A stretch of DNA of 64,000 nucleotides from Planctomycetota bacterium (lineage in GTDB: Bacteria > Planctomycetota > PLA2 > JAEUHO01). Positions 6,651 through 55,500 of this stretch are shown here, in pieces. The position numbers and the translations under genes are program-made. The first letter of the stretch is position 1, and each line of letters opens with the position of its first letter. Below the pieces are notes generated by a model. That model saw only the letters and a program-made list of their open reading frames with translations. It had not been told where the DNA came from and ran no database searches. The stretch covers positions 192,001-256,000 of the forward strand of contig CBDCWP010000044.1 of the NCBI GenBank assembly GCA_965223505.1, read 5' to 3'.

Positions 6651-6724
6651 CCCGTTCGAAGTAGGGGGAACTCGGCTCGGAGGACTGTGTCCAATCGTGC
6701 TGAACCCGGAGAGAGGACTGTCCC

Positions 6725-7966
6725 ATGCGCACACTCGCCGTCACCTTCGCCGTCGCCGCCCTGATCTTCGTCGGCGCGCCGCCCGACGTTCGCGCCGATG
6801 CCGAGCTTCCCGGCGCCGCCGCCGCGGCGAACACCGCGTTCGCGACGGACCTGTACGGCGAGCTCTGCAAGGCGCCCGGCAACCTCTTCTTCTCGCCGTA
6901 CTCCGTGTCCGTCGCCCTGGCCATGACCATGGAGGGCGCGCGCGGCGAAACGGCGGCCGACATGGGACGCGTTCTCCATCTCGAGCGCGCCGCCGCGGCC
7001 GGCCACAACGCGCTGGCGCAGGCGCTTCGGCCCAAGCTGGTGAGCGACTACTCGTCGGGCAAGCGCAAGAAGGTCCCCGCGTACGAGCTCAACATCGCGA
7101 ACGCGATCTGGGGCCAGCACGGCTACCCGTTCCAGCAGCCCTTCCTCACGACGCTCGAGACGCAATTCGGGGCTCCGCTTGCGCGGGCCGACTTCCGCAA
7201 CGGGGAGAAGGCGCGCGCGCGCATCAACGGATGGGTCGAGGATCGAACGCGCGACAAGATCAAGGACATCATTCCGCCGGGCGCGCTCACGCCGGACACG
7301 CGCATGGTTCTGGCGAACGCCATCTACTTCAAAGCGGCCTGGGCCCATGAGTTCTACGACCGCAACACGAAGGAAGAGCCGTTTACGACCGAGGACGGCA
7401 AGACCGTCAAGGCGCGCTTGATGCATCAGCTGAAGAACTTCCAGTACGCCGAGGACGACGACGTGCAGGTGCTCTCCATGGGCTACCGCGGCAACGACAC
7501 GTCCATGGTCGTGCTCCTGCCGAAGAAGCGCGACGGGCTGAAGCAGCTCGAGAAGAAGCTGACCCACGAGACGTTGACGACCTGGCTCGGCAAGCTGAAG
7601 GGGCAACGTGTGCGGGTCAAGTTCCCGAAGTTCGAGTACACGACGCCCATCAACCTCACGAAGACGCTGTCCGACATGGGCATGCAGCGCGCGTTCTCGC
7701 CGAAGACGGCGGACTTCACGGGCATGGCCAATGTGCCCGGCGAGCCGCTCTTCATCGGGCTGGTCCTCCACAAGGCGTTCGTGGCGGTCGACGAGGCCGG
7801 CACGGAAGCCGCGGCCGCGACCGTGGTCGCCATGCGGGCGGGATCCGCGATGCGACCGGCCGAGCCCGTCGATTTCGTCGCCGACCACCCGTTCCTGTTC
7901 CTGATCCGCCACAACCGGACGAACACCGTCCTGTTCATGGGGCGGGTGACCGATCCCACGAAGTAG
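6725..7966 (+). CDS. Exported serpin (serine protease inhibitor)
   Basis: NLFFSPYS, NAIYFKAAW, hinge EAGTEAAAAT, FVADHPFLF, LFMGRVTDP. Confidence 0.95.
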   Translation: MRTLAVTFAVAALIFVGAPPDVRADAELPGAAAAANTAFATDLYGELCKAPGNLFFSPYSVSVALAMTMEGARGETAADMGRVLHLERAAAAGHNALAQALRPKLVSDYSSGKRKKVPAYELNIANAIWGQHGYPFQQPFLTTLETQFGAPLARADFRNGEKARARINGWVEDRTRDKIKDIIPPGALTPDTRMVLANAIYFKAAWAHEFYDRNTKEEPFTTEDGKTVKARLMHQLKNFQYAEDDDVQVLSMGYRGNDTSMVVLLPKKRDGLKQLEKKLTHETLTTWLGKLKGQRVRVKFPKFEYTTPINLTKTLSDMGMQRAFSPKTADFTGMANVPGEPLFIGLVLHKAFVAVDEAGTEAAAATVVAMRAGSAMRPAEPVDFVADHPFLFLIRHNRTNTVLFMGRVTDPTK

Positions 7967-8024
7967 AGGCTTCGCCGCCGCTCGGTCGTCGCACGGGCAG
8001 GCGTGCGCTATCCTCGCTGCGCGC

Positions 8025-10325
8025 ATGCCCCGTTCGTCCCTCCTGGTCTTTGCCGCCGTCCTGACCGTGGGATGGATGTGCGTCGAGCCTGCGCCGACGC
8101 CGGCTGACGCCTCGCCCACGGCGACCCAGCAGTTCCTCGCGAAATGGTGCATCGATTGCCACGGCAGCGAGGGGGCCGAAGCCGAGCTGTACCTCGAGGG
8201 GTTCGATCCCACCGCGCGCGACCTCGACACGCTCTCGACCCTGCGCAAGGTCCGCGAACGCATCGATGCGCGGCTGATGCCCCCCGCCGAGTTCCCGCAA
8301 CCCGACGCCGAAGAGCGGCGTTCCGTTCTCGCCGGTCTGGATCGACTGATCCTCGCCGGCGCCGAGGCGCTGCCCCCCGATCCGGGCCGCGTCACCGTGC
8401 GCCGCCTCAGCCGCGTCGAGTATGCGAACACGGTCCGCGACCTCTTGTCCGTGGACTTCGAGCCCTCCGACTCCTTTCCCGCGGACGACCTCGGGTACGG
8501 CTTCGACAACATCGGCGACGTGCTGTCGCTCTCGCCGCTCCTGCTCGAGAAATACGCGGCGGCCGCCGAGCAGATCGCGCTCGAAGCCGTCCACCTCGAA
8601 CCCGAGACGCCGCCCGTCCGGCGCTTCCAAGCGGAGACGATGGAGGTGTCGAACGAAGGCGCGGGGCGCGCGCAGGGGGACGTCTTCAACCTGTGGTCGA
8701 ACGGCGAGCTCTCCCAGCTGGTCACCGTGCCGCGCGACGGCGACTACGTCCTGCGCGCGTTCGTCTACGGCGAGCAGGCCGGGCCCGAGCCGGCGCGTAT
8801 GGACTTCGTCGTCGACGGGAAGACGGTCCGTACGCTCGACGTGCCCGAGACGTACGAGAAGCCGGCGACGCCCGCCGTCGAGCTACGCCTGACCCAGGGC
8901 CGCCACACGATCGGCGTGGCGTTCGTCAACGACTACTACCGGCCCGACGATCCCGATCCGGCGCAGCGCGACCGCAACATGCACTTCGACTGGGTCGAGC
9001 TCGAGGGACCGGTCGACGAGCTCCCCGTTCCCGCGTCGCATCGACGGCTCTTCGCGAACGACCCGGGCAAGGGCACGCCGGCGCGTCGCGCGAAGCCGAT
9101 TCTCGAGGATCTGTGCAGCCGCGCCTGGCGACGCCCCGTCACCGGCGCCGAGGTCAAGCGCCTGACCAGGCTGGTGGAAGGCGCGATCGAGGACGGGAGC
9201 AGCTTCGAAGCGGGCATTCAGCTGGCGCTGCGTGCCGCGCTCGTCTCGCCTCACTTCCTCTTTCGGCTCGAACCCGGGGCCGCGACGGGCAAGAAGGGCA
9301 CCACGCGCCCCCTGCGCGACTACGCGCTGGCGACGCGGCTCTCCTACTTCCTGTGGAGCAGCATGCCGGACGACGAGCTCTTCGCGCTCGCCAAGCGGCG
9401 CAAGCTGCGCGAGCCCCCGGTGCTGGCGGCGCAGGTCGAGCGGATGTTGGCGGACCCGAAGGCGTCGTCGCTCGCGACGAACTTCGCGGTGCAGTGGCTG
9501 GAGCTTCACAATCTCGACGACGCGCAGCCCGATCCGGAGCGCTTCCCCGGCTTCGACGAGGCGCTGCGCCGCGCGATGCGGCGCGAGAGCGAGCTGTTCA
9601 TCGACGCGATCGTGCGCGAGGAGCGCGATGTCCGCGAGATCGTGGACGCGGACTTCACGTTCATGAACGGACCGTTGGCGGCGCACTACGGCTACGACAA
9701 GATCCAGGGCCCCGCGTTCCGGCGCGTGGAGCTCGAGGGCAAGCGCCGGGGCGGCGTGCTGTCGCACGCCGGCGTTCTGACGGTCACGTCGAACCCGACG
9801 CGCACGTCTCCGGTCAAGCGCGGCAAGTGGGTGCTCGAGAATCTGCTGGACGCGGGAACGCCGCCGCCGCCGCCGGGCGCCGACTCCCTCGACGAAGAGC
9901 AGGTCACGCAGAGCGCACGCTCGTTGCGCGAGCAGCTCGAGCGGCACCGGGCCAAGCCGGAGTGCGCGGTTTGCCACGACCGGATGGACGCTCTCGGATT
10001 CGCGCTCGAGAACTACGACGCGGTCGGCAAGTGGCGACACATCGACGGCGGCAAGCTGATCGACGCCTCCGGCGTGCTGCCGGGGGGGCGCGAGCTGAAC
10101 GGCGCGGCGGATCTCAAGGCGGTGCTGCGCAAGGACCGCGCGTTCTTGCGGTGCCTCACGAAGAAGCTCTTCACGTTCGCGGTCGGCCGCAACCCGACGC
10201 CCGCGGACGAGCTGGCGATCTACGCCTTGGCCGCGTCGCTGCCGCACGAACGGGTTACGATGAGGCAGATCATCCTGCGCATCGTGGAGCTCCCCGCGTT
10301 CCGCCTGCGCAAGGTGCGGGAGTAG
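8025..10325 (+). CDS. DUF1592-family (PSD/PSCyt) planctomycete cytochrome c-like protein
   Basis: CIDCH and CAVCH heme motifs; RRLSRVEYANTVRDL, LATRLSYFLWSSMPD, TSPVKRGKWV. Confidence 0.9.
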   Translation: MPRSSLLVFAAVLTVGWMCVEPAPTPADASPTATQQFLAKWCIDCHGSEGAEAELYLEGFDPTARDLDTLSTLRKVRERIDARLMPPAEFPQPDAEERRSVLAGLDRLILAGAEALPPDPGRVTVRRLSRVEYANTVRDLLSVDFEPSDSFPADDLGYGFDNIGDVLSLSPLLLEKYAAAAEQIALEAVHLEPETPPVRRFQAETMEVSNEGAGRAQGDVFNLWSNGELSQLVTVPRDGDYVLRAFVYGEQAGPEPARMDFVVDGKTVRTLDVPETYEKPATPAVELRLTQGRHTIGVAFVNDYYRPDDPDPAQRDRNMHFDWVELEGPVDELPVPASHRRLFANDPGKGTPARRAKPILEDLCSRAWRRPVTGAEVKRLTRLVEGAIEDGSSFEAGIQLALRAALVSPHFLFRLEPGAATGKKGTTRPLRDYALATRLSYFLWSSMPDDELFALAKRRKLREPPVLAAQVERMLADPKASSLATNFAVQWLELHNLDDAQPDPERFPGFDEALRRAMRRESELFIDAIVREERDVREIVDADFTFMNGPLAAHYGYDKIQGPAFRRVELEGKRRGGVLSHAGVLTVTSNPTRTSPVKRGKWVLENLLDAGTPPPPPGADSLDEEQVTQSARSLREQLERHRAKPECAVCHDRMDALGFALENYDAVGKWRHIDGGKLIDASGVLPGGRELNGAADLKAVLRKDRAFLRCLTKKLFTFAVGRNPTPADELAIYALAASLPHERVTMRQIILRIVELPAFRLRKVRE

Positions 10326-18382: not shown

Positions 18383-18442
18383 CGCTTGATCCTCCGAATC
18401 CGTACGCTACGCCGCTTCGACGTGCGCAACGGGAGGGGTCGC

Positions 18443-20275
18443 ATGACGGACGAGCACCGGGAGGACGAGGGCGGCATCGGCGAGGTGATCGAGGCCCCGG
18501 CGGACGGCGATCCGATCTACCGCCCGGCGCCGAACGAGCTCCAGCTCACCATTCGTGCCGTCGTGGTCGGCTGCGTGCTCGGCGCGCTCGTTTCGGCGAT
18601 GAACATCTACTTCGGTCTGCGAACGGGCTGGGGCATCGGCGGGTCGCTGATCGCCGCGATCCTCTCGTACGCCGCGTTCGCCACGTTCCGTCCGTCACGT
18701 GCGTTCACGCCGCTCGAGACCAACATCGCCCAGACGTCGGGATCGGCCGCGGGCTCCATGTCGTCCACGGCGGGCCTCATTGCCTGCATTCCGGCGCTCA
18801 CGATGCTGGGTTACGACTTCAGCTACATCGAGCTGACGCTGTGGGTGGCGTCGGTGGCTTGGCTCGGCGTGTTCTACGCCGTGCCGTTGCGCCGGCAGAT
18901 GGTCCTGTCCGAGAAGCTACGCTTCCCGACCGGGACCGCGACGGCCAACACGATCGTCGCCATGTTCGGCTCGGGCGCCGAGACGGTTCGCAAGGCCAAG
19001 GCGTTGTTGATCTGGGCGGTCATCGCGGGCCTCTACACGATCGGCGCGTACTTCATCCCGGACATGGAGTCCCCGCCGCTCGCGAAGTGGGCGCCGATGA
19101 TCTTCGCGGTTCCCGCGAGCTTCACCTTCTCGCTGATGGTGAGCCCGTTGCTTTGGGGCGCCGGCATCCTCGTCGGCATGCGCGTCTCGCTCTCGCTCGT
19201 CGGCGGCGCGATCGTCGCCTGGGCACTGCTGGTCCCGTTCGTCGAGAGCCAAGGGTGGGTTTCGTCGTCGCGGATGAGCTACGCCACCGGCGCGCGCGGT
19301 TGGATCCTCTGGCCGGGCGTCGCGATCATGGTCGCCGACGCGCTCACGAACCTCGCGTTGTCGTGGCGGAGCATCGTCGGCACGTTCAAGATGAAGCTCG
19401 GGGACGACGACGAGGGCGCGCTTGAGGATCCCGCGCAGGCCATTCCCAACAAGTGGTGGATCGGCGGGCTGACGATCGCCTCGATCCTGACGATCGTCAC
19501 GGTCTGGCTCGTGTTCGACATCTCTCCGATCCTCACGTTGATCGCGATCGTCATGTCGAGCGTGCTGGCGGCGATCGCGACACGATCCACGGGCGAGACC
19601 GACATCAACCCCATCGGCGGCATGGGCAAGGTGACCCAGCTCGTGTACGGCGGGCTCGCGCCGGGACAGATGGACACCAACCTGCTGGCCGCCGGCGTCA
19701 CCGGCGCCGGCGCGTCGCAGGCGGCCGACATGATGCAGGACTTGAAGACGGGCCATCTGCTCGGCGCATCGCCGCGCAAGCAGCTCATCGCGCAGCTTGC
19801 CGGCATCGCGTCCGGCGTCCTGTTGTGCGTGCCGATCTACCGGCTGCAGACGGATGCCTACACACTGGGCTCCGACAAGCTGCCTGCCCCCGCTGCCATG
19901 GCGTGGAAGGCGCTGGCCGAGGTGCTGGCCAAGGGCTTCGAGGCGCTACCGACCAACGCGGCGTGGGGGGTGCTCGGCGGCCTCATCGTCGGCATCGCCG
20001 TTCCGTTGCTGCGGCGCAAGTCCAAGCGGGCCCGCGCCGTCCTCCCGGTCGGGATCGCGTTCGGCATCGCGTTCATCATCCCGGCGTTCTACTCGCTGTG
20101 CTTCCTGTTCGGCGCCGTCGGGTACGCCATCTGGCGCAAGCTGAATCGTCCCGCGGCCGAGGCGCTCGGTTTCGCCGTGGCGTCGGGGCTCATTGCCGGC
20201 GAAGGACTGATGGGACTCGTCACCGCCGCAATGAAGCTGGCCGGTGTCGAGCCGCTGATTCCGCCGACGCACTGA
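18443..20275 (+). CDS. OPT-family oligopeptide transporter
   Basis: QLTIRAVVVG, ETNIAQT, LRFPTGTATA, ADMMQDLKTGHLLGASPRKQ, ASGLIAGEGL. Confidence 0.9.
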   Translation: MTDEHREDEGGIGEVIEAPADGDPIYRPAPNELQLTIRAVVVGCVLGALVSAMNIYFGLRTGWGIGGSLIAAILSYAAFATFRPSRAFTPLETNIAQTSGSAAGSMSSTAGLIACIPALTMLGYDFSYIELTLWVASVAWLGVFYAVPLRRQMVLSEKLRFPTGTATANTIVAMFGSGAETVRKAKALLIWAVIAGLYTIGAYFIPDMESPPLAKWAPMIFAVPASFTFSLMVSPLLWGAGILVGMRVSLSLVGGAIVAWALLVPFVESQGWVSSSRMSYATGARGWILWPGVAIMVADALTNLALSWRSIVGTFKMKLGDDDEGALEDPAQAIPNKWWIGGLTIASILTIVTVWLVFDISPILTLIAIVMSSVLAAIATRSTGETDINPIGGMGKVTQLVYGGLAPGQMDTNLLAAGVTGAGASQAADMMQDLKTGHLLGASPRKQLIAQLAGIASGVLLCVPIYRLQTDAYTLGSDKLPAPAAMAWKALAEVLAKGFEALPTNAAWGVLGGLIVGIAVPLLRRKSKRARAVLPVGIAFGIAFIIPAFYSLCFLFGAVGYAIWRKLNRPAAEALGFAVASGLIAGEGLMGLVTAAMKLAGVEPLIPPTH

Positions 20276-29480: not shown

Positions 29481-30083
29481 TTACGGTGCGAAGTGCTGAA
29501 TGATGAGCGTCGGGCGTGAAGCGACGTCCGCGTTCGTGCTCGCCGTGATGCGGCCTTCGTCTTCGATCCCGTCGGCGTTCGTCTCGTTCGCGAATCGGAA
29601 GCGGAAGGACGTGGTCGCCCGTCCGGCCGCGACGTCGGCCTGTAGGTAGGGCGTGACGTCGAGCGTCCAACTGGCCTCGTCGGCGAGCGCGAACGCGGCC
29701 GCTGTGAGCGTCCCGCCGGCCTCGTCCGCGGGATCGAGGGCGCCGCCGCCGTCGATGTGGTCGACGAGCAACGGGCCCAGGGAGAACGGCGCGTTCGTCG
29801 ACACCCCCTGGTGGATCGTGAGCTGCGCGTCCTGAACCGCGCCGATGCCCGTCAGATCGAACGTCAACATGCCGATGATCGGCAGGTCCGACGAGCTGTC
29901 ACCCATGACCATGTTCACGGCGTTCGGGTGCGCGACGCCGTCCAGCAGCCAACCCTCGCCGGCGGGGACCGCGGGCGCCGCAACCTCGATGGTGACCGGA
30001 ATGATCGCCGGCGAAGAGGAACCGCCGCAGGCCGTGAGCGCAAGTAACAAGAGAAGGGTGAGCGGGCTGAGTCGATGGGCCAT
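29481..30083 (-). CDS. Hypothetical lipoprotein (paralog of 28866-29468)
   Basis: Lipobox LTAC-GG; same length (200 aa) and shared motifs; GGGAG RBS. Confidence 0.8.
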   Translation of the reverse strand: MAHRLSPLTLLLLLALTACGGSSSPAIIPVTIEVAAPAVPAGEGWLLDGVAHPNAVNMVMGDSSSDLPIIGMLTFDLTGIGAVQDAQLTIHQGVSTNAPFSLGPLLVDHIDGGGALDPADEAGGTLTAAAFALADEASWTLDVTPYLQADVAAGRATTSFRFRFANETNADGIEDEGRITASTNADVASRPTLIIQHFAP

Positions 30084-30128
30084 CGTCGTTACTCCCGTAG
30101 AACGCCGTTTGGCGCGCTGCCATGAGGG

Positions 30129-30152
30129 AGTCGTGCCCGCCGCTCGAAATTG
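30129..30152 (-). promoter_or_regulatory. Putative ECF promoter CAATT-N14-CGACT upstream of the twin lipoproteins
   Basis: Same bipartite motif and spacing as at 31903-31926 upstream of the ECF sigma gene. Confidence 0.5.
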
Positions 30153-30170
30153 ACCCGCGTCTCTCAGGAA

Positions 30171-31016
30171 TCAGCGCGCGAGGCCGTCGAGGTAGCTCCG
30201 TAGTGCGTTTCGCGCTGCGACCATCTCTTCGTCGGTCGATTCGATCTCGTCGACGTAGGTGCGCGCCGTCGCGAACAGGCGTTCGCGCACCGCATAGTGG
30301 GCGGTAACGAGCGCCGCGAGTCCGTCCGGCGCCTGATCCGCGATCGAAGCGATCACATCGGCGTGTTGCGCTCGCGTCGCGTCGTCCGCGACCTCGAACA
30401 CGCGCTTGATCTCCTGGCCGGCGAGCGTGTCGATGCCGCGCAGCCGCACGACGTACCGACCGGGTTTCATCGGGGGCGCTACGGCGCGCTCGCCCGAGGC
30501 TTCGTGCCTCCAACGCAGACCTTCGCCCTCGATCGACACCTCGACCCGGGACGCGCCCAGAGGACTGCGCCACCGCAGCTCTTCCGGCGCCGCGGTGACG
30601 ATGCCGATCGGTGCGACCCACGCGGCGCCGCCGCGCTTCGCGCCGTTGGCCGTCAGCTCTTCCGCACTGAGCGGCTCGAAGCCGTGGGCCGCCGTCGCCG
30701 CGGCCAACCGCGTCGCGAGGTCGTCCGCCCGGACGTCTCCGTCGTCCGAGACCCACCAGATGCCCAGCGCCAGCAGGAACGCGGCGGCAACGGCCGCAAG
30801 GCTGAACGGCAAGCTGGGCCGGTTCGTCTGCTCCTCGCGTAGCGCGCGAACGAGCAACATCGCCTCGGGATCGGCCTTGATCCGCGCCTCGACCTCCGCA
30901 CGTTCGTCGGCGGGCAACGCGTCGTCCAAGTACGCGGCGATCACGTTGGGATCGAGCGGCTGGTTGTGCAGCTGTACCAGAGGCTGCACGCGTTCCTGGA
31001 GCTCGCGTTCATCCAT
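30171..31016 (-). CDS. Putative transmembrane anti-sigma factor
   Basis: zf-HC2-like IAAYLDDALPADERAEVEARI (Zn ligands lost); single TM; extracytoplasmic domain; overlaps the end of the sigma gene. Confidence 0.7.
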   Translation of the reverse strand: MDERELQERVQPLVQLHNQPLDPNVIAAYLDDALPADERAEVEARIKADPEAMLLVRALREEQTNRPSLPFSLAAVAAAFLLALGIWWVSDDGDVRADDLATRLAAATAAHGFEPLSAEELTANGAKRGGAAWVAPIGIVTAAPEELRWRSPLGASRVEVSIEGEGLRWRHEASGERAVAPPMKPGRYVVRLRGIDTLAGQEIKRVFEVADDATRAQHADVIASIADQAPDGLAALVTAHYAVRERLFATARTYVDEIESTDEEMVAARNALRSYLDGLAR

Positions 31017-31848
31017 GTGTGTGTCTCCCGGCGCCCGGCGTGTCCATTGCCGCCGCCGTACGGGCCAACATGCGTTCCACGGTTTCGAACAAGCTCGACC
31101 AACCCCCGCCGGACGTGCTCCAGTCGGGATGGGTCTCGAACTTCGACTCGATCGTCGCCCGCAAGCGCGTCATCGCCGACTGCAGCAGTCGCGTGACCCG
31201 TGGGGGGCTCACGTTCATCGCGCTTGCGATCTCGGTCTGCGGCAGCCGGTGGCAGTACTTCAAGACGACCGCCTGCAGCTCGCGTCGTGTCAGGCCCGAC
31301 CAGGCGTCCTCGAGGGCCGCCCCGAGTCGTTCCGCCGTCTCGGACTGCGCGACGCGGACCGCCGGATCCCGATGTTCGGGGGCCGCGTGGTGTTCCGCGA
31401 CGGCGGCATCGGTCGTGGTCGCGCGCGCACGCCAGCGATCCGTGAGCCGGCGCCAGACCACGGTCGCGAGCCACGCATACAGCGAGCCGCGGCCGTCGTA
31501 CGTGCCGATGCGGGTCGCCGCGCCGCCGCGTGGCGGCGGCGCCGCCAGCGCGCCCCACGTCTCGTCGAGCAGCTGATCGGCCTCGCCGCGTGCCGCGCCG
31601 CGCTTGCGAAGGAACGCTCGCAGCGGCCGCTGGAATCGGGCCTGCAGCCGCTCCCACGAACCCGCGAGACCGGCGTTGCATGCACGTGCGAGGTAGTAGT
31701 CGGCCGCGGCCCGCGGCGGCCGGTCGCGTCCGAACTCGACGAAGTCCTCGAACGGCAGCTCTACACGGGGATGCTCGCGGCGGCCGGCCGCGTACGCCTG
31801 GCGGAGCGGTGCGTTCTCGGGCGGTTTCACGCGCGCGACTGCTTCCAT
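31009..31848 (-). CDS. ECF-type sigma-70 factor
   Basis: DYYLARAC; region 2 YDGRGSLYAWLATVVWR; region 4 LPQTEIASAMNVSPPRVTR. Confidence 0.85.
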   Translation of the reverse strand: MEAVARVKPPENAPLRQAYAAGRREHPRVELPFEDFVEFGRDRPPRAAADYYLARACNAGLAGSWERLQARFQRPLRAFLRKRGAARGEADQLLDETWGALAAPPPRGGAATRIGTYDGRGSLYAWLATVVWRRLTDRWRARATTTDAAVAEHHAAPEHRDPAVRVAQSETAERLGAALEDAWSGLTRRELQAVVLKYCHRLPQTEIASAMNVSPPRVTRLLQSAMTRLRATIESKFETHPDWSTSGGGWSSLFETVERMLARTAAAMDTPGAGRHTHG

Positions 31849-40148: not shown

Positions 40149-41185
40149 CCGCCGTCGATTACCGACATGGGCTGGACCGACAGCGAGCTGAACCGCTGCG
40201 TCTTGCCGTCGAGCTTCTGGTCGAGGATCTTCTCGAAGACCGCCTGCTTCCACTCCAGAGGCGTACGTGGACTCGTTGCCGCGATCGCGTCGTGGATCTG
40301 GATCGAATAGAGCCACAGGCCGCCGGGCTCGACGACGGTGATGGTCTCCGATGAGAGACCGATGCCGGACTTCGACAACAGCGCGACGCTCATCACGTCG
40401 TCGGCCGTCGCGCCCATGGCCAGCCGCTGCTTCAGCTTCCGATGCGCGGCGGAGACGATCGACTCCGCGAACTCGGGCGTGATCTCGTGTTGGGCCGCGA
40501 TCTCGTCTCGGCGCTTGCGGTTGTAGTCCTCGATCGCGTGATCGGGCGCGCCCTTCGAGCTCTCATAGAAGGCCGCCGCGCGCTCGATGGCCGCGAGGGT
40601 CACGGCCGGCGACTGCAGCGCCGGCAGGCAGTCGAAGACCATGCCGTCGGGACGGCAGAAATACAGCGCGATCTCGCCGCCGATCGTGCCGCGAACGCTC
40701 TTGCCGTCGCCCAGGTCGAACTCGGCGATGGCCACGGGCGAGACGGACTCCCAGACCGGGGTGAAGGACTTGCTGACCGCGTCGATGATCCGGCGATCCG
40801 AGAACGTCACGGTTCTCGCAAGCTTGCCGTTCGCTCAGCAGAACTCCTCGTCGAACTTCCCGAAGAGGTGCAAGACCATCAGCGGCTTGTCTCCGCCCTT
40901 GGCTTCCTCCACGGAGCGCCGCCAGAGCAGGCGGCCGTCGCCACCCCACTGGCCGGTGATCTTCGAGAGCGCGCGCCGGCTGTGAACCTGCACCTTCACG
41001 CTGTCGCTCTCGAGTCCCGCCTGCAGGTCGGGAATCGCGTCTGCCCCCTTGGCGGCCCACGCCTGCACGGCGGCGCGCGCAACCTCCGGGTCGCCGCGGA
41101 ACTCGGCGAACGGCTGTTCACTCTGCGCATCACCGCAGGCGGCGAGCGCGACCAAGGCGATACAGGCGAGCACGGCGTGCTTCAT
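40145..41185 (-). CDS. Putative selenoprotein: Selenoprotein-N-like lipoprotein with C-U (in-frame TGA 40835-40837)
   Basis: Lipobox LAAC; KPLMVLHLFGKFDEEFC-TGA-ANGKLARTVTFSDRRIIDAVSKSFTPVWESV joins the two ORF-track pieces in frame; SECIS-like hairpin. Confidence 0.85.
40791..40829 (-). promoter_or_regulatory. SECIS-like hairpin
   Basis: Stem CGAGAAC/GTTCTCG, loop CGTGAC at +24; lower CGGC/GCCG. Confidence 0.65.
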
Positions 41186-44606: not shown

Positions 44607-44708
44607 GGCATGTCTCCATTGCTTTGGACCTGAGGCGCGACAGCCTACCGCGAGGCCCGGGTGCTGCGCGGTTGACGCACGGGCGCGCTTCGCGTTCCCT
44701 ACCAAGCC

Positions 44709-45584
44709 ATGGACGTCCACCTGATCGACGGTACGTACGAGCTGTTCCGGCACTTCTACGCGCTGCCTTCGCGGCGCAACGCGGACGGCGACGAGGTTGC
44801 GGCGGCTCGCGGCGTGGTCGAGTCCGTGCTACGACTCCTCGAAGACGGCGCGACCCACGTCGCCGTCGCGACGGACCACGTCATCGAGTCGTTTCGCAAC
44901 GAGCTCTGGCCCGAGTACAAGACCGGTGAGGGCATCGACCCCGAGCTGTTCGCACAATTCCCGCTGCTCGAGGACGGGCTCGAGGCGCTCGGGGTCGTCG
45001 TCTGGCCGATGGTCGAGTACGAGGCCGACGACGCCATGGCCGCCGGCGCGGCGATGGCCGCACAGGACGCGCGTGTCACGCGAGTGCTCATCTGCACGCC
45101 GGACAAGGACCTCGCGCAGTGCGTCGACGACGAGCGTGTCGTCCAGCTGGACCGGCGCAAGGGCGTCGTGATCGACCGCCAGGGCGTCATCGAGAAATTC
45201 GGGGTGCCGCCGGAGTCCATTCCCGACTACCTGGCGCTGGTCGGCGACAGCGCCGACGGGTTTCCGGGTCTGCCCGGATGGGGTGCGAAGTCGAGCGCCG
45301 CCGTGCTGTCGCGCTACGGGCACATCGACGCGATTCCGGACGAGGCGGATGTGTGGGATGTAAAGGTGCGCGGCGCCGCGCGTCTGGCGGCCACGCTGGC
45401 AGAGAACCGCGAGCGGGCGCTGTTGTTCCGGCAGATCGCCACGGTCGTTCGCGATGCGCCGGTGTCGGAGACGGTCGACGACCTGCGGTGGAAGGGGCCC
45501 GGCGAGGACTGGGCTGCAACATGCGAGGCGCTCGACGCGCCAGGCTGGGAGGGGCGGATGTCCCGCCTGCTGAGCCGGGCCTGA
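44709..45584 (+). CDS. 5'-3' exonuclease / flap endonuclease
   Basis: LIDGTYELFR, YEADD, TPDKD, ALVGDSADGFPGLPGWGAKS. Confidence 0.92.
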   Translation: MDVHLIDGTYELFRHFYALPSRRNADGDEVAAARGVVESVLRLLEDGATHVAVATDHVIESFRNELWPEYKTGEGIDPELFAQFPLLEDGLEALGVVVWPMVEYEADDAMAAGAAMAAQDARVTRVLICTPDKDLAQCVDDERVVQLDRRKGVVIDRQGVIEKFGVPPESIPDYLALVGDSADGFPGLPGWGAKSSAAVLSRYGHIDAIPDEADVWDVKVRGAARLAATLAENRERALLFRQIATVVRDAPVSETVDDLRWKGPGEDWAATCEALDAPGWEGRMSRLLSRA

Positions 45585-46596: not shown

Positions 46597-46692
46597 GGGC
46601 GCTCCGCCGACATCGTGGCAGGTTGGGCGTAACGGCTCAAGCCCCTTCGGGAGTACGGTATTCGGCGCCCTCGAGCCGGATGGAGTGTGACG

Positions 46693-48006
46693 ATGAAGAT
46701 CTGCGTCGTGGGAACGGGCTACGTCGGATTGGTGACCGGCGCGGGCTTCGCGGAGATGGGCAACGACGTCGTCTGCGCGGACCTCGACGAAGGCAAGATC
46801 GCCGCGCTCGAACGCGGCGAGACGCCGATCTCGGAGCCGGGGCTCGACTCGATGATCGCGCGAAACGTCGCGGGCGGGCGCCTGACGTTCACGACCGACG
46901 TCGAGTCGGCGGTCGCGGACGCGGAGGCGATCTTCGTTGCGGTCGGCACGCCCCAGCGCTCGGACGGCGGCGCCAACCTGTCTGCCGTCGATGCGGTGGC
47001 GGAGACCGTTGCGAACGCGTCCAAGCGCGAGTGCGTGCTGGTGCTGAAGAGCACCGTGCCGGTCGGAACCAACGAGCGCGTGAGCCGCATCGTGAAGAAG
47101 GTGACCGACCATCCCATTCACGTCGTCAGCAATCCGGAGTTCCTCAAGGAGGGCGACGCCGTCGGGGACTTCCTGCGTCCCGACCGCATCGTGATCGGCT
47201 GTCAGGCCGACGACGAGTTCGCGCGCGATCTGATGAGCCGGCTCTATCACCCGGTCTCGCTTCGCCGCGACAAGACGGTCTGGATGTCGCCCCAGAGCGC
47301 GGAGATCACGAAGTACGTCGCGAACACGATGTTGGCGATGCGGATCTCGTTCATGAACGAGATCGCGGCGCTGTGCGAGCGGGTCGATGCGGACGTCAAC
47401 GACGTTCGCATGGGCGTCGGATCCGACCACCGCATCGGTCCGGAGTTCCTCTACGCGGGCCCGGGCTACGGCGGCTCGTGTTTCCCCAAGGACGTCATCG
47501 CTCTCGTTCACGTGGGCCGGGAGTACGGCATGCCGCTCGAGCTGGCGCAAGCGACCGAGAACGTGAATCAACGCCAGAAGGGCGTGATGTTGCGCAAGCT
47601 CAAGGACCATTTCGAGGGCGACCTGCGCGGCAAGAAGGTCGCGCTGTGGGGCATCGCGTTCAAGCCGCGCACCGACGACATCCGCGAGTCGCCGGCCCTG
47701 ACGCTCATCGACGGGCTGTTCGCCGAAGGCGCGACGGTGTCCGCGCACGATCCCGAGGCGGGGGACGAGGCGCGCCGTCGCTTCGGCGACGCGCTCGAGG
47801 TCGTCGACGGTCCCTACGAGGCCGTGAGAGACGCGGACGCGCTCGTTCTCGTGACGGAGTGGCGCGTCTACCAGAATCCGGACTTCGGGCGCATCAAAGA
47901 CGCGATGCGAACACCGTTCCTGCTGGACGCACGCAACATCTGGGCGACGTACGGGCTTCGCAAGCAGGGCTTCGACTACACCGGGATCGGCGTGCGCGGC
48001 AGCTGA
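46693..48006 (+). CDS. ugd: UDP-glucose 6-dehydrogenase
   Basis: GTGYVG, KSTVPVG, SNPEFLKEG, GYGGSCFPKD, FKPRTDDIRES. Confidence 0.95.
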   Translation: MKICVVGTGYVGLVTGAGFAEMGNDVVCADLDEGKIAALERGETPISEPGLDSMIARNVAGGRLTFTTDVESAVADAEAIFVAVGTPQRSDGGANLSAVDAVAETVANASKRECVLVLKSTVPVGTNERVSRIVKKVTDHPIHVVSNPEFLKEGDAVGDFLRPDRIVIGCQADDEFARDLMSRLYHPVSLRRDKTVWMSPQSAEITKYVANTMLAMRISFMNEIAALCERVDADVNDVRMGVGSDHRIGPEFLYAGPGYGGSCFPKDVIALVHVGREYGMPLELAQATENVNQRQKGVMLRKLKDHFEGDLRGKKVALWGIAFKPRTDDIRESPALTLIDGLFAEGATVSAHDPEAGDEARRRFGDALEVVDGPYEAVRDADALVLVTEWRVYQNPDFGRIKDAMRTPFLLDARNIWATYGLRKQGFDYTGIGVRGS

Positions 48007-50473: not shown

Positions 50474-52540
50474 ATGCGTACCGTCCGGTTCACTCTCCTG
50501 GTCCTCGTCCTCCTCCTCACGCACGTCGCGCTCCTGCTCGGTTGCGGAACCAGCGGAAAACCGAACGATCCAGCCGAGCCCGTCTTCTCGATGTCTCTCT
50601 TCGGCCCGAACCCGCATCTGATCACGAACCCGCACTTCCCGCTCGTGCCCGGCACCACGACGCTGTCGCAGTCGGAGACCGACGAAGGCATGGAGACCCT
50701 CGTCTCCGAGGTGCTCGCGCCCACGCGCGTCGTCGCCGGGCTCGCGTGTCGCGTCGTGCGCGTGCGGGAGTATCTAGGCGAGCTGCTGGTCGAGGACGCC
50801 CACGACTGGTACGCGCAGGACGCCGCCGGCAACGTCTGGTACATGGGCGAAGACGTCGTCAACTACGAGTACGACGACGACGACAACTTGGTCGACACCA
50901 ACGGCGACGGCTCTTGGGAGGCCGGACTCGACATCGACGGCGTCGGCACGCCCGCCGCGCCGGGCATCATCATGAAGTCCACCCTGGTGGTGGGGGACAC
51001 GTACCGGCAGGAGTTCTACCCGACCGTGGCCGAGGACATGGGCGGGATCGCCGCGCTCAACGTACCGGTTGCGCTCGCCTGCGGGACCAACTACACGTGC
51101 CTGCAGACCCGCGACTGGAACCTGCTGGAGCCCGGTGTCTTCGAGCGCAAGTTCTACGCCCCGGGCATCGGGGTCGTCGCCGAAGAGGTCGAGGGCACGG
51201 ACGAGCGCGTGGAGATGCGTGGTGTCTTCCTGCCGACACCGGTCAGCTTGCCGAATCAGGGCGACGCGACCTTCTCGAACCCCACCGAGATCACCAACCC
51301 CTACTTTCCGCTTGCCGTCGAGACCATGCGGGGGCTCGTCGTGCCGACGGAGGAAGGCGGGGAGACCGTGATCCAGGAGGTGCTCGACGAGACCCGCGTC
51401 GTGAACGGCGTCACCTGCCGCGTCTTGCGGGTGCGGGAGTACGAAGGCGACCTGCTCAAGGAGGACACCAAAGACTGGTTCGCGCAGGACGACGCGGGCA
51501 ACGTCTGGTACTTCGGCGAGGAGGTCGTGAACTACGAGTACGACGACGACGACAACCTCGTCGACACGAACGACGACGGCTCGTGGGAAGCGGGCGTCGA
51601 CGGCGCGCTGGCCGGTGTCCAGATGTGGGCGGCGCCGGCGATCGGCGTGTCCTACTACCAGGAGTTCTATGCCGGTGAGGCCGAGGACATGGCAGTGCCG
51701 ATCGCGACGGGCGTCTCGCTCACGCTTCGCAACGGGATCTCGTACGACAACTGCCTGAAGACACTCGAGTGGACGCCGCTCGAGCCGAGTGTGATCGAGT
51801 TCAAGTACTACGCGCCCGGGGTCGGCCTGATCCAGGAGCAGCCGCTCGACGGGGAGTCGGAGGGCATCGAGCTCTTGGGGGTTCTCGACACGAGCTTGGG
51901 CACGTTGCCGAACTTCGCCGCGGCGACGTTCAGCGTGCCGGAGGTCATCACGAACCCGTATCTGCCCTTCGTGCCCGGAACGACCTGGGACTACGAGGTC
52001 GAGACCGACGAGGGCACCGAGACGATCTTCGTCGAGGTCTTGGCCACGACGCGCGTCGTCAACGGGCTGACGTGCACGGTGGTGCGGGACCGCGTGTTCC
52101 TCGACGGCCTCGAGATCGAGGACACGCACGACTGGTACGCGCAGGATGACGCCGGCAACGTCTGGTACATGGGCGAGGACGTCATCAACTACGAGTACGA
52201 CGAGAACGGCGTCCTCATCGGCACCGACAACGAGGGCGCGTGGGAGGCCGGTGTCGACGGGGCGTTGCCGGGCATCATCATGTGGGCCGTTCCCACAGTC
52301 GGGACGTCGTACCGACAGGAGTTCTACGAGGACGAGGCCGAGGACATGGCGGTCGTCATTGCCACCGGCGTGAGCATCACGCTCGGCGACGGCACGATCT
52401 ACAACAACTGCGTGCAGGTCCTCGAGTGGTCGCCGCTGGGACCGGAGTCGCTGGAATACAAGTTCGCGGCGCCCGGCATCGGCGTGGTTCTGGAGCTCAA
52501 GCCGTCTTCCGAAGAGGCCGTCGAGCTCGTGGGGCCCTGA
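50474..52540 (+). CDS. Acidic lipoprotein with three tandem ~220-aa domains
   Basis: AAGGAG RBS; lipobox LLGC; three ITNPxxP..DWxAQDxAGNVWYxGE..WEAG..EDM..APGxG units. Confidence 0.85.
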   Translation: MRTVRFTLLVLVLLLTHVALLLGCGTSGKPNDPAEPVFSMSLFGPNPHLITNPHFPLVPGTTTLSQSETDEGMETLVSEVLAPTRVVAGLACRVVRVREYLGELLVEDAHDWYAQDAAGNVWYMGEDVVNYEYDDDDNLVDTNGDGSWEAGLDIDGVGTPAAPGIIMKSTLVVGDTYRQEFYPTVAEDMGGIAALNVPVALACGTNYTCLQTRDWNLLEPGVFERKFYAPGIGVVAEEVEGTDERVEMRGVFLPTPVSLPNQGDATFSNPTEITNPYFPLAVETMRGLVVPTEEGGETVIQEVLDETRVVNGVTCRVLRVREYEGDLLKEDTKDWFAQDDAGNVWYFGEEVVNYEYDDDDNLVDTNDDGSWEAGVDGALAGVQMWAAPAIGVSYYQEFYAGEAEDMAVPIATGVSLTLRNGISYDNCLKTLEWTPLEPSVIEFKYYAPGVGLIQEQPLDGESEGIELLGVLDTSLGTLPNFAAATFSVPEVITNPYLPFVPGTTWDYEVETDEGTETIFVEVLATTRVVNGLTCTVVRDRVFLDGLEIEDTHDWYAQDDAGNVWYMGEDVINYEYDENGVLIGTDNEGAWEAGVDGALPGIIMWAVPTVGTSYRQEFYEDEAEDMAVVIATGVSITLGDGTIYNNCVQVLEWSPLGPESLEYKFAAPGIGVVLELKPSSEEAVELVGP

Positions 52541-53011: not shown

Positions 53012-53752
53012 TCAGCGGACGCGGCGGAACACGTCGAGAGAGAATCCCATGGTCTCGCGTCCCCACCGCTGCTGTGCGGCGTTCCACGCCCGCTTCTCGG
53101 CGATCATTGCATCGACGGCCGGATCGCCGGCGTGCGCGTCGGCATACGACTCGTGGTTCGCGAGCACGGTGCCTTCGAGTCGATCCCATGCCTCTCGGGA
53201 TGCGATCTGATGCCGCTCGCTCTCGAAGCCGCATCGCCGCGCGACATCGAGAAACGACTCGCGATCGCGCAGTGCGTCCGCGGGCAACCCCGTTGCCTCG
53301 AGGTACTCGACGGGCGGCGGCTGCATCCAGAAACCGTCGCCGTAGATCAGCCACCCGTCGCCGCGAAGCCAGCGCGCGTAGAGCCGCAGCGTCTCGTCGA
53401 GTCGGTCGTCTCGATACGGCCCGCCGTTTGCGATGACCACATCGAACGAATCGTCCGCGAACGCCAGGTCGTCGGCATCGCACGCGAGCCAGGCCGCGTC
53501 GGCGTCAGGCACTCGGGCCTGGAGGGCCGATCGCGCGAGCCCGAGCGCCGCCTCGGATCGATCGACGCCCGTGATCCGCGCGCCGAGCCGTTCTGCGAGA
53601 TCGATCAACGTCGTGCCCCGGCCGCAACCGACGTCGAGCGCCGACAACCCTGCGGGCAGCGGCAGCGACGCGAGCAGCTCCCTTACGTCCGCAGCGGAGA
53701 CCGGCCCCCACATGTCGAGGCCGGCGTAGTGATCGATGTCGCTCCGGCCCAT
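53012..53752 (-). CDS. Class I SAM-dependent methyltransferase
   Basis: ALDVGCGRG, GVDRS, SFDVV. Confidence 0.88.
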   Translation of the reverse strand: MGRSDIDHYAGLDMWGPVSAADVRELLASLPLPAGLSALDVGCGRGTTLIDLAERLGARITGVDRSEAALGLARSALQARVPDADAAWLACDADDLAFADDSFDVVIANGGPYRDDRLDETLRLYARWLRGDGWLIYGDGFWMQPPPVEYLEATGLPADALRDRESFLDVARRCGFESERHQIASREAWDRLEGTVLANHESYADAHAGDPAVDAMIAEKRAWNAAQQRWGRETMGFSLDVFRRVR

Positions 53753-53810
53753 GGCGCCGAGCCTACCGCGGCGGATCGACGCCCGGGCGAAGCGTGTCTA
53801 TACTTCGCCG

Positions 53811-55082
53811 ATGCGCAATCTGATTCTCGCGTGCGCCGTGCTGGCGCTCTCGCCCGTCGTCCTTGCCGAGGAGCTCACCGAAGCGTCCGCTCCGATCTTC
53901 TCCGAGCCGATCCAGGTCATGGCCGACGGCGTCCCGATCGCGGTCGAGGCGCCCGGATTCGCCTGCCCGACCTTCCACGACGTGGACGGAGACGGATTGC
54001 GTGACCTCGTGGTCGGGCAGTTCAAAGAGGGGAAGCTCCGACTCTTCAAGAACGTCGGCAGCGCCAAGGCGCCCAAGTTCGCGAAGGGCGAGTGGCTCAT
54101 GACCGGCGAGAAGGCCGCGGTCGTTCCCGGCGTGTGGTGATGCACCAGCTCCACGCCGCAGTTTGCGGACATGAACGGTGACGGCCGGCTCGACATCGTC
54201 TCCGGTTGCTACAGCCAACGCGGGCAAGCGATGGTGGCGCCCGTCTGGGTGCTCTACCGCAACGAGGCCGGCGACTTCGCCGAAGCGGTCGCGCTCAAGA
54301 ACGACGCCGACGAGCACATCGTCGCGCGGGACATGGAGGGCGTGGTGACGGAGCGCATCTGCACCGAGCCCTTCGCCTTCGACTGGGACGCGGACGGGGA
54401 CCTCGACTTCGTCATCGGGAACTTCAGCGGAGCGTTCCTGCTAGCGATCAACGTCGGGACGGCGAAGGAGCCGAAATTCGAGGGCAAGCCCGAGTACCTG
54501 ACCAACGCCGCGGGCGAGCGCCTGAAGGTCAACGGCAATCACAGCGCGCCCTTCCTGGTGGACTGGGACGGCGACGGCGACGTGGACCTGCTCAGCGGCA
54601 CCGGCGGGGGCGGGGTCCAGATCGCCGAGAACGATCCGGGCGAGGACGGCGCGCACCGCTTCTCCGACTTCCGCGAGCTGATCCCCGCACCCGACATGCG
54701 CGCGTCGGCGGCGATCTGTCCGCCCGACACACCGGTGACGCCCGCGTCATCGTGGCGCATCTGCGTGGCGGATTACGACGGCGACGGCAAGCTCGACATC
54801 ATCGTCGGGGACTGCTTGCGCCGCAGTCATCCCAAGGGCGAGCTGACCGTCGAAGAAGCAACGGCGGAACAGGCGAAGTGGATCGAGAAGAACAACGAGT
54901 TGCGCGACGAGATGACCGCGCTGCGCAAGCAGCTGGCCGAGGCGACCGAGAACGAGGCGCAGGAGGAGCTGGCCGCCAAGGTCAAGGAGCTCAACCAGGC
55001 GCGCAGCGACCACTACCGGGCCCGCAGCGAGTTCATCGACGCCGTGTCCACCGGCCACGTCTGGGTCTACCTTCGCAAGTAG
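53811..55082 (+). CDS. Putative selenoprotein: exported FG-GAP/VCBS repeat protein with W-U-C (in-frame TGA 54138-54140)
   Basis: Signal peptide; DVDGDGLRDL repeat before the TGA; VPGVW-TGA-CTSSTPQFADMNGDGRLDI continues with four more DxDGDG-type repeats. Confidence 0.85.
54143..54180 (+). promoter_or_regulatory. SECIS-like hairpin
   Basis: Stem CCGCA/TGCGG, loop GTT at +21; lower CACC/GGTG. Confidence 0.55.
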
Positions 55083-55097: not shown

Positions 55098-55349
55098 CTA
55101 GCTCTCTTTGCGGCTTCGAAGGTAGGTTTCCCACAGCTTCGCGGCGTCGGTGACGAACACCGTGGCGTGACCGCAATCGCCGCAGATGCGCGCGCGCACC
55201 TTGCCGTAGCGGCCGCGCTTCTCGAGGGGATCGTCCGGCGCCTCGTATACCTCCACGTTGAGGTCCAGCTCGTAGCCGTCCTCGTGATCGATCACCCGCG
55301 CATTCGGGATGATCTTGTCGGAACCGCAGCTCGTGCACGTCGCGCTCAT
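55098..55349 (-). CDS. Small zinc-ribbon-like protein
   Basis: MSATCTSCGS..ARICGDCGH; GGGAG RBS. Confidence 0.75.
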   Translation of the reverse strand: MSATCTSCGSDKIIPNARVIDHEDGYELDLNVEVYEAPDDPLEKRGRYGKVRARICGDCGHATVFVTDAAKLWETYLRSRKES

Positions 55350-55500
55350 CTGGTGTTCTCCCGCATCCAGAATACGCAAGGATCGCGGCGTTGCGAGCCG
55401 CTCCGCGCCGCGCGCGACCGTTGCGACCGACGATTGCGAGACAGTCCGCGGGTTGCGTGGGGTTCCGCTCGCAAGCGGCCCTCGACGACACGGCCGTTCT

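Follow-up and report, generated by a model that had tools for sequence, protein, structure and literature searches.

The 64,000-nucleotide (nt) stretch of planctomycete DNA studied here (the window) carries, on its forward strand at 53811..55082, a gene for an FG-GAP beta-propeller protein whose reading frame contains one TGA. Comparison with homologous proteins and genome loci makes it very likely that this TGA, codon 110, encodes selenocysteine (Sec, U). Taken as a whole, the findings are best explained by a secreted selenoprotein propeller with a redox centre formed by Sec110 and the adjacent Cys111, an interpretation that we regard as probable.

Translated with TGA as Sec, 53811..55082 (+) is a single open reading frame (ORF) of 423 codons, which extends from the ATG at 53811 to a TAG stop at 55080–55082. 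The only in-frame TGA lies at 54138–54140 and is followed immediately by TGC (54141–54143), the codon of Cys111 and hence of the vicinal partner of Sec110. In the standard ORF list the locus is divided into 53736..54140 and 54171..55082. The G+C content at third codon positions (GC3) in the propeller frame amounts to 0.88 on the 5' side and 0.93 on the 3' side of the TGA, and one Pfam FG-GAP_3 match (residues 57–130, profile positions 1–60 of 61) crosses codon 110. This continuity of GC3, the Pfam match across the TGA and the recurrence of the same arrangement in 41 other genomes (see below) argue that the arrangement is not due to chance. The ATG at 54171 shares its frame with the ORF beginning at 53811 and is the Met of a DMNGDG loop (residues 120–125; 54168..54185, +). 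The read-through translation agrees with an earlier note on this DNA, according to which one DxDGDG repeat precedes the TGA (residues 57–62) and four follow it (residues 120–125, 191–197, 251–257 and 321–326); the additional cysteines listed there (in SGCY, RICTEP, ICPP, ICVAD and GDCL) are all present as well.

A protein search was carried out with the read-through product as the query, U being entered as C, and gave 1454 matches at E ≤ 0.001, of which 120 were listed. Among the listed matches, 73 cover only 71–72% of the query, corresponding to the part downstream of the TGA, and 23 cover 88–100%. Twenty-two of these 23 full-length matches were aligned (P0105 was left out). Cys-Cys occupies the position of U110-C111 in 21 of them, and the remaining one, P0116, has neither Cys. 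The conserved context of the site in the full-length homologs is …VP-x-[WY]-C-C-x-[GS]-S-x-P-x-F-x-D-x-[DN]-G-D-G. All 21 shortened entries examined start at or after F-V-D-x-N-x-D-G, 20 of them within the motif (at a Met or at the GTG of the Val) and one later, which supports the earlier view that the ATG at 54171 lies inside a repeat and is a false start. The Sec-form members are named ‘VCBS repeat-containing protein’ or ‘hypothetical protein’ in GenBank, on shortened gene models.

A genome scan with the family alignment, using one genome per species and frame-aware alignment, returned 79 loci. At the aligned site, a TGA followed by a Cys codon is present in 41, two Cys codons (TGY at the position of the TGA) are present in five (L012, L015, L025, L030 and L033), and the other 33 loci are more distant FG-GAP proteins without the motif. 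Most of the 41 TGA loci show a start, a hydrophobic signal-like N-terminus and a C-terminal …G-x-V-W-L-Y-L-R-K; the exceptions are L014 and L032, located at contig ends, L019, which is short, and L034, which has a short N-terminal part. The Sec-form loci belong mostly to Planctomycetota, with two from Verrucomicrobiota (L010 and L019) and a few from metagenome bins with other labels. An alignment of homologs for CC or UC at this site had been proposed beforehand, and both forms were found, the one in 21 of 22 full-length proteins and the other, as TGA-Cys codon, in 41 of 79 loci. The opposite picture, in which homologs consistently end at VPGVW ahead of a separate second gene or carry Trp, was not encountered, the residue at the site being Cys. 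In a sample biased by the fact that its Cys forms were drawn from matches selected for full length, the family tree (65 rows, comprising the window, 43 loci and 21 full-length matches, with L019, L032, L034, P0105 and P0116 omitted) requires at least seven Sec/Cys exchanges, six of which are forced by well-supported branches. The propeller gene is very probably a genuine selenoprotein gene, and its family is large, mostly Sec-containing and mis-annotated.

If the TGA were instead a real stop, the locus would represent two genes, a pseudogene, or a case of altered code with TGA as Trp or Gly. The gene callers, which divide the locus here and in most relatives, and the lack of visible Sec machinery within the 64-kb window would agree with this. 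The same in-frame TGA is however found at 41 loci of different genomes with the frame kept on both sides, homologs carry Cys and not Trp or Gly, the called starts lie inside the DxNxDG loop, the Pfam repeat match spans the TGA, and blade 1, encoded upstream of it, is needed for the five-bladed fold described below. A real stop is therefore very improbable. As to the code, TGA terminates many Pfam-supported genes of the window, among them those of a UDP-glucose dehydrogenase (46633–48006), a 5'-3' exonuclease (44676–45584) and an OPT transporter (18383–20275). Since TGA is thus an ordinary stop in the window, an altered genetic code does not explain the propeller TGA, and a changed meaning as Trp or Gly was rejected on this ground and because of the Cys found at the site in homologs.

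The sequence downstream of the UGA was analysed for a selenocysteine insertion sequence (SECIS). The sequence 3' of the UGA in the Sec-form loci reads …UGC-(9 nt)-(A/G)(C/G)U-CCA-CAG-UUY-GUG-GA…, which folds as UCCAC / AGUUY / GUGGA. The corresponding hairpin in the window is CCGC / AGUUU / GCGG, with the core CCGC(A), loop (A)GUU(U) and GCGG located at 54156..54168 (+). RNAalifold, applied to 42 Sec-form sequences (the window and the 41 loci), returned a homologous 5-bp hairpin with the loop AGUUY. Its outermost pair, alignment columns 30–44, is U-A in 40 of the 42 sequences. Columns 31–43 form C-G in 40 and U-G in two, columns 32–42 and columns 34–40 each form C-G in 41 and U-A in one, and columns 33–41 form A-U in 32, G-C in four (including the window) and G-U in three, being unpaired in three. 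When the helix is taken as seven pairs, 85.0% of the cells pair, as compared with 27–43% when the partner is slid by 1–3 columns, and there are 5 two-sided pair changes versus 2.2 expected, a number reached by none of 500 shuffles.

The hairpin follows the Sec/Cys status of the gene. Core pairing is retained in 205 of 210 cells in the Sec forms (n = 42) versus 12 of 25 cells in the Cys forms (n = 5), and the mean minimum free energy (MFE) of the 21-nt stretch is −8.8 versus −1.9 kcal/mol. All five pairs are kept in 37 of the 42 Sec forms and in none of the five Cys forms, which is the outcome of the check on SECIS conservation that the earlier note had suggested. The synonymous third positions in the stem are nearly fixed in the Sec forms (T in 40, A in 32 and G in 41 of 42), in contrast to the five Cys forms, where they are mixed. 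In addition, a change from Val (GUG) to Ala (GCG) is accompanied in four of four cases by a change of the third base of the Pro codon from A to G. Bacterial SECIS elements are characterised by a loop of 3–9 nt that has G within its two leading positions, a stem of at least 4 bp, a spacing of 16–37 nt and an MFE of ≤ −7.5 kcal/mol (PMC13188914). The values for the window hairpin lie within these limits, with the loop (A)GUU(U), a stem of 4–5 bp, a spacing of 19 nt and −11.4 kcal/mol over 43 nt (54138–54180). An extended SECIS candidate (54143..54180, +), in which a lower stem CACC/GGUG surrounds the core hairpin, is predicted by the MFE fold, the lower stem coming from the fold of the window alone.

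Several properties of the hairpin weigh against this assignment. In the window it amounts, by itself, to −6.6 kcal/mol, its stem is short (four G-C pairs and an optional A-U), and it has a G·A mismatch where U-A holds in 40 of 42 Sec-form sequences. A stretch of 91 nt around the TGA shows no folding advantage over shuffled sequences (z = 0.89); support is confined to the short hairpin. The covariation is modest, with a score of 0.155 versus 0.118 in shuffles, 2 of 500 of which reached it. Moreover, the conservation is in part to be explained at the protein level, since the stem falls in the codons of the conserved residues T/S-P-Q-F-V-D.

Whether the organism decodes Sec was addressed with the window as well. 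No SelA, SelB or SelD was present among the 43 window ORFs scanned, no tRNA was found within the 64 kb, and no Rfam family reached its gathering score across the whole window, which, as far as these 64 kb go, counts against decoding. Between 53600 and 55300, Rfam at E up to 10 yielded two sub-threshold chance matches only, one of them to tRNA-Sec on the opposite strand (17.6 bits, the gathering score being 47). On the other hand, the window contains a further gene with an in-frame TGA (41185 to 40145, −; TGA at 40835–40837), encoding the motif …D-E-E-F-C-U-A-N-G… in a protein (FCU) with a lipoprotein-like signal at its start and no match to a Pfam or NCBIfam family. An exhaustive phmmer search returned 1222 relatives of it; of the 150 that were listed, many stop at the residue directly preceding the U or begin nine residues beyond it. 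Where nine site-spanning proteins were aligned, Cys is found at the U in eight (…S-C-A-N-S-R…) and Asp in one, and two N-terminal fragments in the alignment end at …D-E-E-F-C. A stem-loop with a G-containing loop lies 3' of the UGA of this gene. Given two independent TGA/Cys correspondences within 64 kb, the organism probably decodes Sec. For several Planctomycetes, complete sets of Sec-insertion genes have been reported (PMC4807772). A third locus, with two ORFs in one frame split by a TGA (29481–31169, −; TGA at 30171–30173), was rejected as a Sec gene, the downstream ORF having its own Met and a lipoprotein-type signal.

The propeller protein matches PF13517 (FG-GAP_3) with 81.6 bits (cut-off 26.9) and PF01839 with 37.6 bits (cut-off 22.1). 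A model was calculated with AlphaFold2 from a 60-sequence alignment, made up of the window protein, 22 full-length matches and 37 loci; a further nine loci were excluded because their ends were truncated or doubtful. The mean predicted local distance difference test (pLDDT) value is 91.7 and the predicted template modelling score (pTM) 0.89. Following a low-confidence N-terminal helix (residues 2–13) in the predicted signal peptide, the model displays five four-stranded blades, each of which begins with a strand leading into a DxDGDG loop. The loop of blade 1 is DVDGDG (residues 57–62; 53979..53996, +), with D57 invariant in 60 of 60 aligned sequences, and that of blade 2 is the DMNGDG containing the false-start ATG. 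Those of blades 3, 4 and 5, identified from the translation and the family alignment, are DWDADGD (residues 191–197; 54381..54401, +), DWDGDGD (residues 251–257; 54561..54581, +) and DYDGDG (residues 321–326; 54771..54788, +). These loops may be expected to bind Ca. The Pfam matches and the five loops are in line with the original description as an FG-GAP propeller with Ca-type DxDGDG loops; its characterisation as ‘adhesin-like’ is not upheld, as nothing indicates adhesion and five blades are predicted versus the seven of integrin-type propellers. A seven-bladed arrangement as in integrin alpha is not supported, there being five DxDGDG loops and five blades in the model.

Two long helices (residues 347–377 and 381–407; 54849..55031, +; block pLDDT 97–98) lie between the strands 329–341 and 409–420, after the second strand of blade 5, and this helical hairpin is apparently an insertion in the last blade. 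The C-terminal beta-hairpin (…GHVWVYLRK; strands 409–414 and 416–420; 55035..55079, +) is the most conserved element outside the repeats, W418 being present in 58 and V417 in 55 of the 60 sequences. Foldseek searches against the Protein Data Bank returned FG-GAP propellers (UmbA4, CRTAC1, fungal N-acetylglucosamine (GlcNAc) lectins, TcB and integrin alpha) at E-values of 9e-8 to 1e-4 with template modelling (TM) scores of 0.29–0.39, and five-bladed propellers of glycoside hydrolase family 43 (GH43) with TM scores of 0.40–0.42. These matches fit a variant of the FG-GAP fold with five blades.

U110-C111 is situated within a 12-residue stretch without regular structure (residues 105–116; block pLDDT 91–92), which connects the last strand of blade 1 with the first, innermost strand of blade 2; the loop position stated in the earlier note is thus reproduced by the model. 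Propeller loops of this type lie on one face near the axis. From the secondary-structure string and this general topology, the pair would be placed near strand 1 of blade 2. The C/U-C pair, conserved in 59 of 60 sequences at each position, represents the only strongly conserved residues without an obvious structural role. Two histidines are clade-specific, H244 (36/60) and H50 (35/60; Phe in the window).

A signal peptide is predicted for residues 1–19 (53811..53867, +), read by eye, with probable cleavage after V-L-A; similar hydrophobic N-termini occur in relatives. A peptidoglycan-binding domain, PG_binding_1, is inserted in L020 (3977–5428, +) and in P0054, with 55.1 and 47.1 bits, respectively, and in L020, a Sec-form member, it sits between blades 2 and 3. 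The signal-like N-termini of relatives and the PG_binding_1 domains in L020 and P0054 point to an extracytoplasmic location, and we infer that the propeller protein is exported.

One subclade carries a DsbD_N domain C-terminal to the propeller, with 37.4 bits in L013, 36.7 in L017, 35.8 in L021 and 30.1 in L012 (Pfam cut-off 25); L015 scores 17.2 bits, which is below the cut-off. L013, L017 and L021 are Sec forms and L012 is a Cys form. The most elaborate arrangement is the double-Sec fusion at L013:3941–6712 (+), in which the order from the propeller (U131-C) onwards is DsbD_N, helical region and ResA/TlpA/DsbE-like thioredoxin domain, the last having the active site W-U-G-P-C (UxxC motif) with a second in-frame TGA, codon 820. 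The DsbD electron relay has two periplasmic modules, a DsbD_N and a thioredoxin-like domain. Their covalent attachment to the propeller in relatives suggests that such a relay has the U-C or C-C pair as its terminal redox centre. UxxC thioredoxin-fold proteins are themselves catalogued selenoproteins (PMC13188914). Judging by these fusions, a U-C pair that acts as a redox centre served by a DsbD_N/TlpA-type relay is on balance the favoured assumption, and we lean towards such a relay-fed centre as fitting better than a regulatory ‘switch’.

A candidate third Sec family with an in-frame TGA and the motif K-L-D-W-L-U-x-C was observed at L022:40–1554 (+) and L021:5957–6838 (+), with the TGA just upstream in the latter. 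It has no Pfam or NCBIfam match. In L022 it is a separate secreted protein encoded directly upstream of the propeller gene, and in L021 the propeller-DsbD_N protein carries it as a C-terminal fusion, an arrangement that suggests a functional link with the propeller.

The mechanism we propose would begin with recoding of the UGA at codon 110 by the standard bacterial route, a small stem-loop beginning 18 nt past the UGA recruiting SelB with Sec-tRNA. The mature product would be an extracytoplasmic five-bladed FG-GAP propeller, stabilised by its Ca-type loops, with Sec110 and Cys111 in the loop leading to blade 2 as the reactive centre. This pair would cycle between the selenol/thiol state and a vicinal selenenylsulfide, and would be re-reduced by a periplasmic relay, first a TlpA/ResA-like thioredoxin and then a DsbD_N-like domain. 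Both the redox cycle and the electron source are deduced from the fusions in relatives. Taken further, the propellers could constitute a new class of extracytoplasmic selenoenzymes, in which the U-C selenenylsulfide would be the terminal catalytic centre of a DsbD_N/TlpA-type relay and reduce an oxidised envelope substrate; the class would be widespread in Planctomycetota and Verrucomicrobiota and linked to the candidate FCU and KLDWLUxC Sec families, which are likewise unlisted. This extension is put forward tentatively, and we would not yet call it probable. The candidate substrates would be a peroxide, a sulfoxide, a disulfide or an oxidised metalloid.

A number of observations speak against the relay. 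The window propeller protein and its neighbours lack DsbD_N and thioredoxin-like domains, and no DsbD/CcdA membrane partner was found beside the gene in the window or in the loci. Only five of 46 family loci carry DsbD_N, four above the cut-off and one under it, and it is missing from all 120 longer proteins that were listed; the search for the latter gave generic multi-domain FG-GAP proteins (BNR/sialidase, LamG and others). Similarly, there is no conserved neighbour, the best cluster in an all-against-all BLASTP comparison of 1579 flanking ORFs being present in six of 46 loci. In the window itself the propeller gene stands alone; on its upstream side lie a divergent methyltransferase gene and a DUF454 gene, and on its downstream side genes in convergent orientation that encode a small protein and a permease.

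Vicinal Cys pairs in MerA and MerT bind Hg, and TlpA-type reductases serve in the assembly of copper sites. The protein might be a genuine selenoprotein in which the U-C pair is a site for soft metals or metalloids (Cu(I), Hg(II), As(III), Cd), used in trafficking, sequestration or sensing, and the fused reducing domains would merely keep the ligands reduced. Adjacent C and U are known from catalogued metal-related families, namely CopZ-family GxUC, MerB-like SaoL CU, HgcA CU and MbdU CU (PMC13188914), and the clade of the window protein has extra cysteines in the equivalent loops of blades 1, 3 and 5 (C52, C184 and C318). The latter are however not family-wide (7, 18 and 12 of 60 sequences, respectively), no metal transporter or resistance gene is a conserved neighbour in the 46 loci or adjacent to the gene in the window, and the combination of DsbD_N with a thioredoxin-like domain is that of an electron relay. 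A metal site is for these reasons unlikely, though it deserves consideration.

In a genuine selenoprotein, the vicinal selenenylsulfide might alternatively be purely structural, forming a tight turn that shapes a ligand-binding (e.g. carbohydrate-binding) face as in FG-GAP lectins. The nearest solved folds found by Foldseek include the fungal GlcNAc lectins PVL (Psathyrella velutina lectin) and AAL2 and other binding propellers, and besides the U/C-C pair there are no clearly conserved catalytic residues, the two histidines mentioned above being limited to 36 and 35 of the 60 sequences. Repeated Sec/Cys exchange and fusion to reducing domains would be unexpected for an inert cross-link, and catalogued Sec residues are overwhelmingly found in redox or catalytic motifs (PMC13188914). 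We consider a purely structural role improbable.

The propeller with its proposed U-C redox centre was compared with known systems. CRTAC1 (9etn), PVL (2bwr), TcB of Tc toxins, integrin alpha and UmbA4 (9oee) resemble the window protein in their FG-GAP/VCBS repeats and DxDxDG loops and give the best Foldseek E-values. They are seven-bladed, whereas five blades are predicted here, and the TM scores to FG-GAP propellers are below those to GH43; the helical hairpin and the C-terminal GxVWLYLRK hairpin are particular to the window family. To our knowledge, neither Sec nor a conserved vicinal Cys pair occurs in any of these five propellers. A working model for the U-C cycle is provided by mammalian thioredoxin reductase, whose C-terminal Gly-Cys-Sec-Gly forms an eight-membered selenenylsulfide ring that is reduced by a neighbouring dithiol and passes electrons on to substrates. 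The two are not homologous; the order is C-U there and U-C here, and a flexible C-terminal tail of a cytosolic flavoenzyme compares with an internal loop of a secreted propeller. In the DsbD relay, electrons pass from the membrane domain to thioredoxin-like cDsbD, then to immunoglobulin-like nDsbD and finally to periplasmic clients. The four relatives above the cut-off share DsbD_N with the DsbD/TlpA/ResA systems and L013 shares the ResA/TlpA-like domain as well, whereas the window protein has neither. A redox-relevant vicinal disulfide in a propeller is known from the pyrroloquinoline quinone (PQQ) methanol dehydrogenase, where Cys103-Cys104 lies in a loop of a periplasmic eight-bladed propeller; that enzyme is PQQ-dependent, unrelated and without Sec.

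Other selenoproteins and candidates come closer in one respect or another. Sec directly beside Cys is also present in the catalogued CopZ-family GxUC, SaoC, SaoL, HgcA, MbdU and KCU-star proteins (PMC13188914), from which the window protein differs in fold and domain identifiers, and no NCBIfam match links it to them. The closest mention in the literature searched is Table S9 of PMC4807772, which contains four in-frame-TGA candidates described as ‘ASPIC UnbV; FG-Gap repeat’ proteins (two planctomycetes). Like the window gene, these are planctomycete FG-GAP proteins with an in-frame TGA annotated as two genes. They differ in having an ASPIC/UnbV domain, which is absent from the window protein, in the Gly aligned to the TGA and in that one of the four has no SECIS. 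Given this Gly, they are assigned to a different architecture. A ‘hypothetical’ protein with Cys in Rhodopirellula sallentina in the same table may belong to the window family or to another.

In NCBIfam release 20 no model matches the window protein, the best score being 17.7 bits versus a cut-off of 100. A 2026 review of prokaryotic selenoproteomes covers 119 families and subfamilies, none of which has an FG-GAP or VCBS domain identifier in its Table 1 (PMC13188914). The terms VCBS, FG-GAP, propeller and Planctomyc are absent from the text of this review and from the main text of the BSepDB paper, and a term search did not find them in the deep-Sep paper. Likewise, FG-GAP, VCBS and PF13517 do not appear in the part of the BSepDB supplement that was searched, and full-text searches gave no relevant report joining FG-GAP to selenoprotein or selenocysteine, or VCBS to selenocysteine. 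Within the literature and catalogues searched, the propeller family is undescribed as a selenoprotein family.

The reading of UGA as a stop leads to systematic mis-annotation of selenoproteins, and the propeller family is stored in public databases as ‘VCBS repeat-containing’ fragments of 285–335 residues (73 of the 120 listed matches). Its recognition would mend many gene models, would add the beta-propeller fold and an internal U-C motif, both outside the 119-family catalogue of 2026, and would extend what is known of the selenoproteomes of phyla in which selenium use has received little study. The family would also offer a natural compact SECIS within conserved codons and would point to selenium-dependent chemistry in the cell envelope, tied to the DsbD/TlpA reducing pathway. 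The mechanism of Sec insertion itself is ordinary and new bacterial selenoprotein families are regularly reported; the propeller adds a new family to a kind of system already known, and is a solid find rather than a revolutionary one.

Upstream of the propeller gene, a promoter-like site (TCGACG, 17 nt, TATACT; 53776..53804, +) identified by consensus match ends 6 nt before the ATG; one such site was found versus 0.1 expected in shuffles. Just downstream, the convergent small ORF at 55101–55361 (−) encodes two CxxC-type pairs (…CTSCGS…CGDCGH…) and is zinc-ribbon-like, without a Pfam match. Elsewhere in the window, 7950–10325 (+) encodes a large protein with the planctomycete-type domains PSD2–5, PSCyt3 and PSCyt1 and a CBM60 module, suggestive of a lineage like or near the planctomycetes, and 6704–7966 (+) encodes a bacterial serpin with a full-length Pfam match (E = 4.5e-120). 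A secreted protein of 688 residues without a Pfam match, encoded at 50474–52540 (+), consists of three internal repeats, each about 215 residues long, in which a …NYEYDDDDNLVDTNGDGSWEAG… segment recurs.

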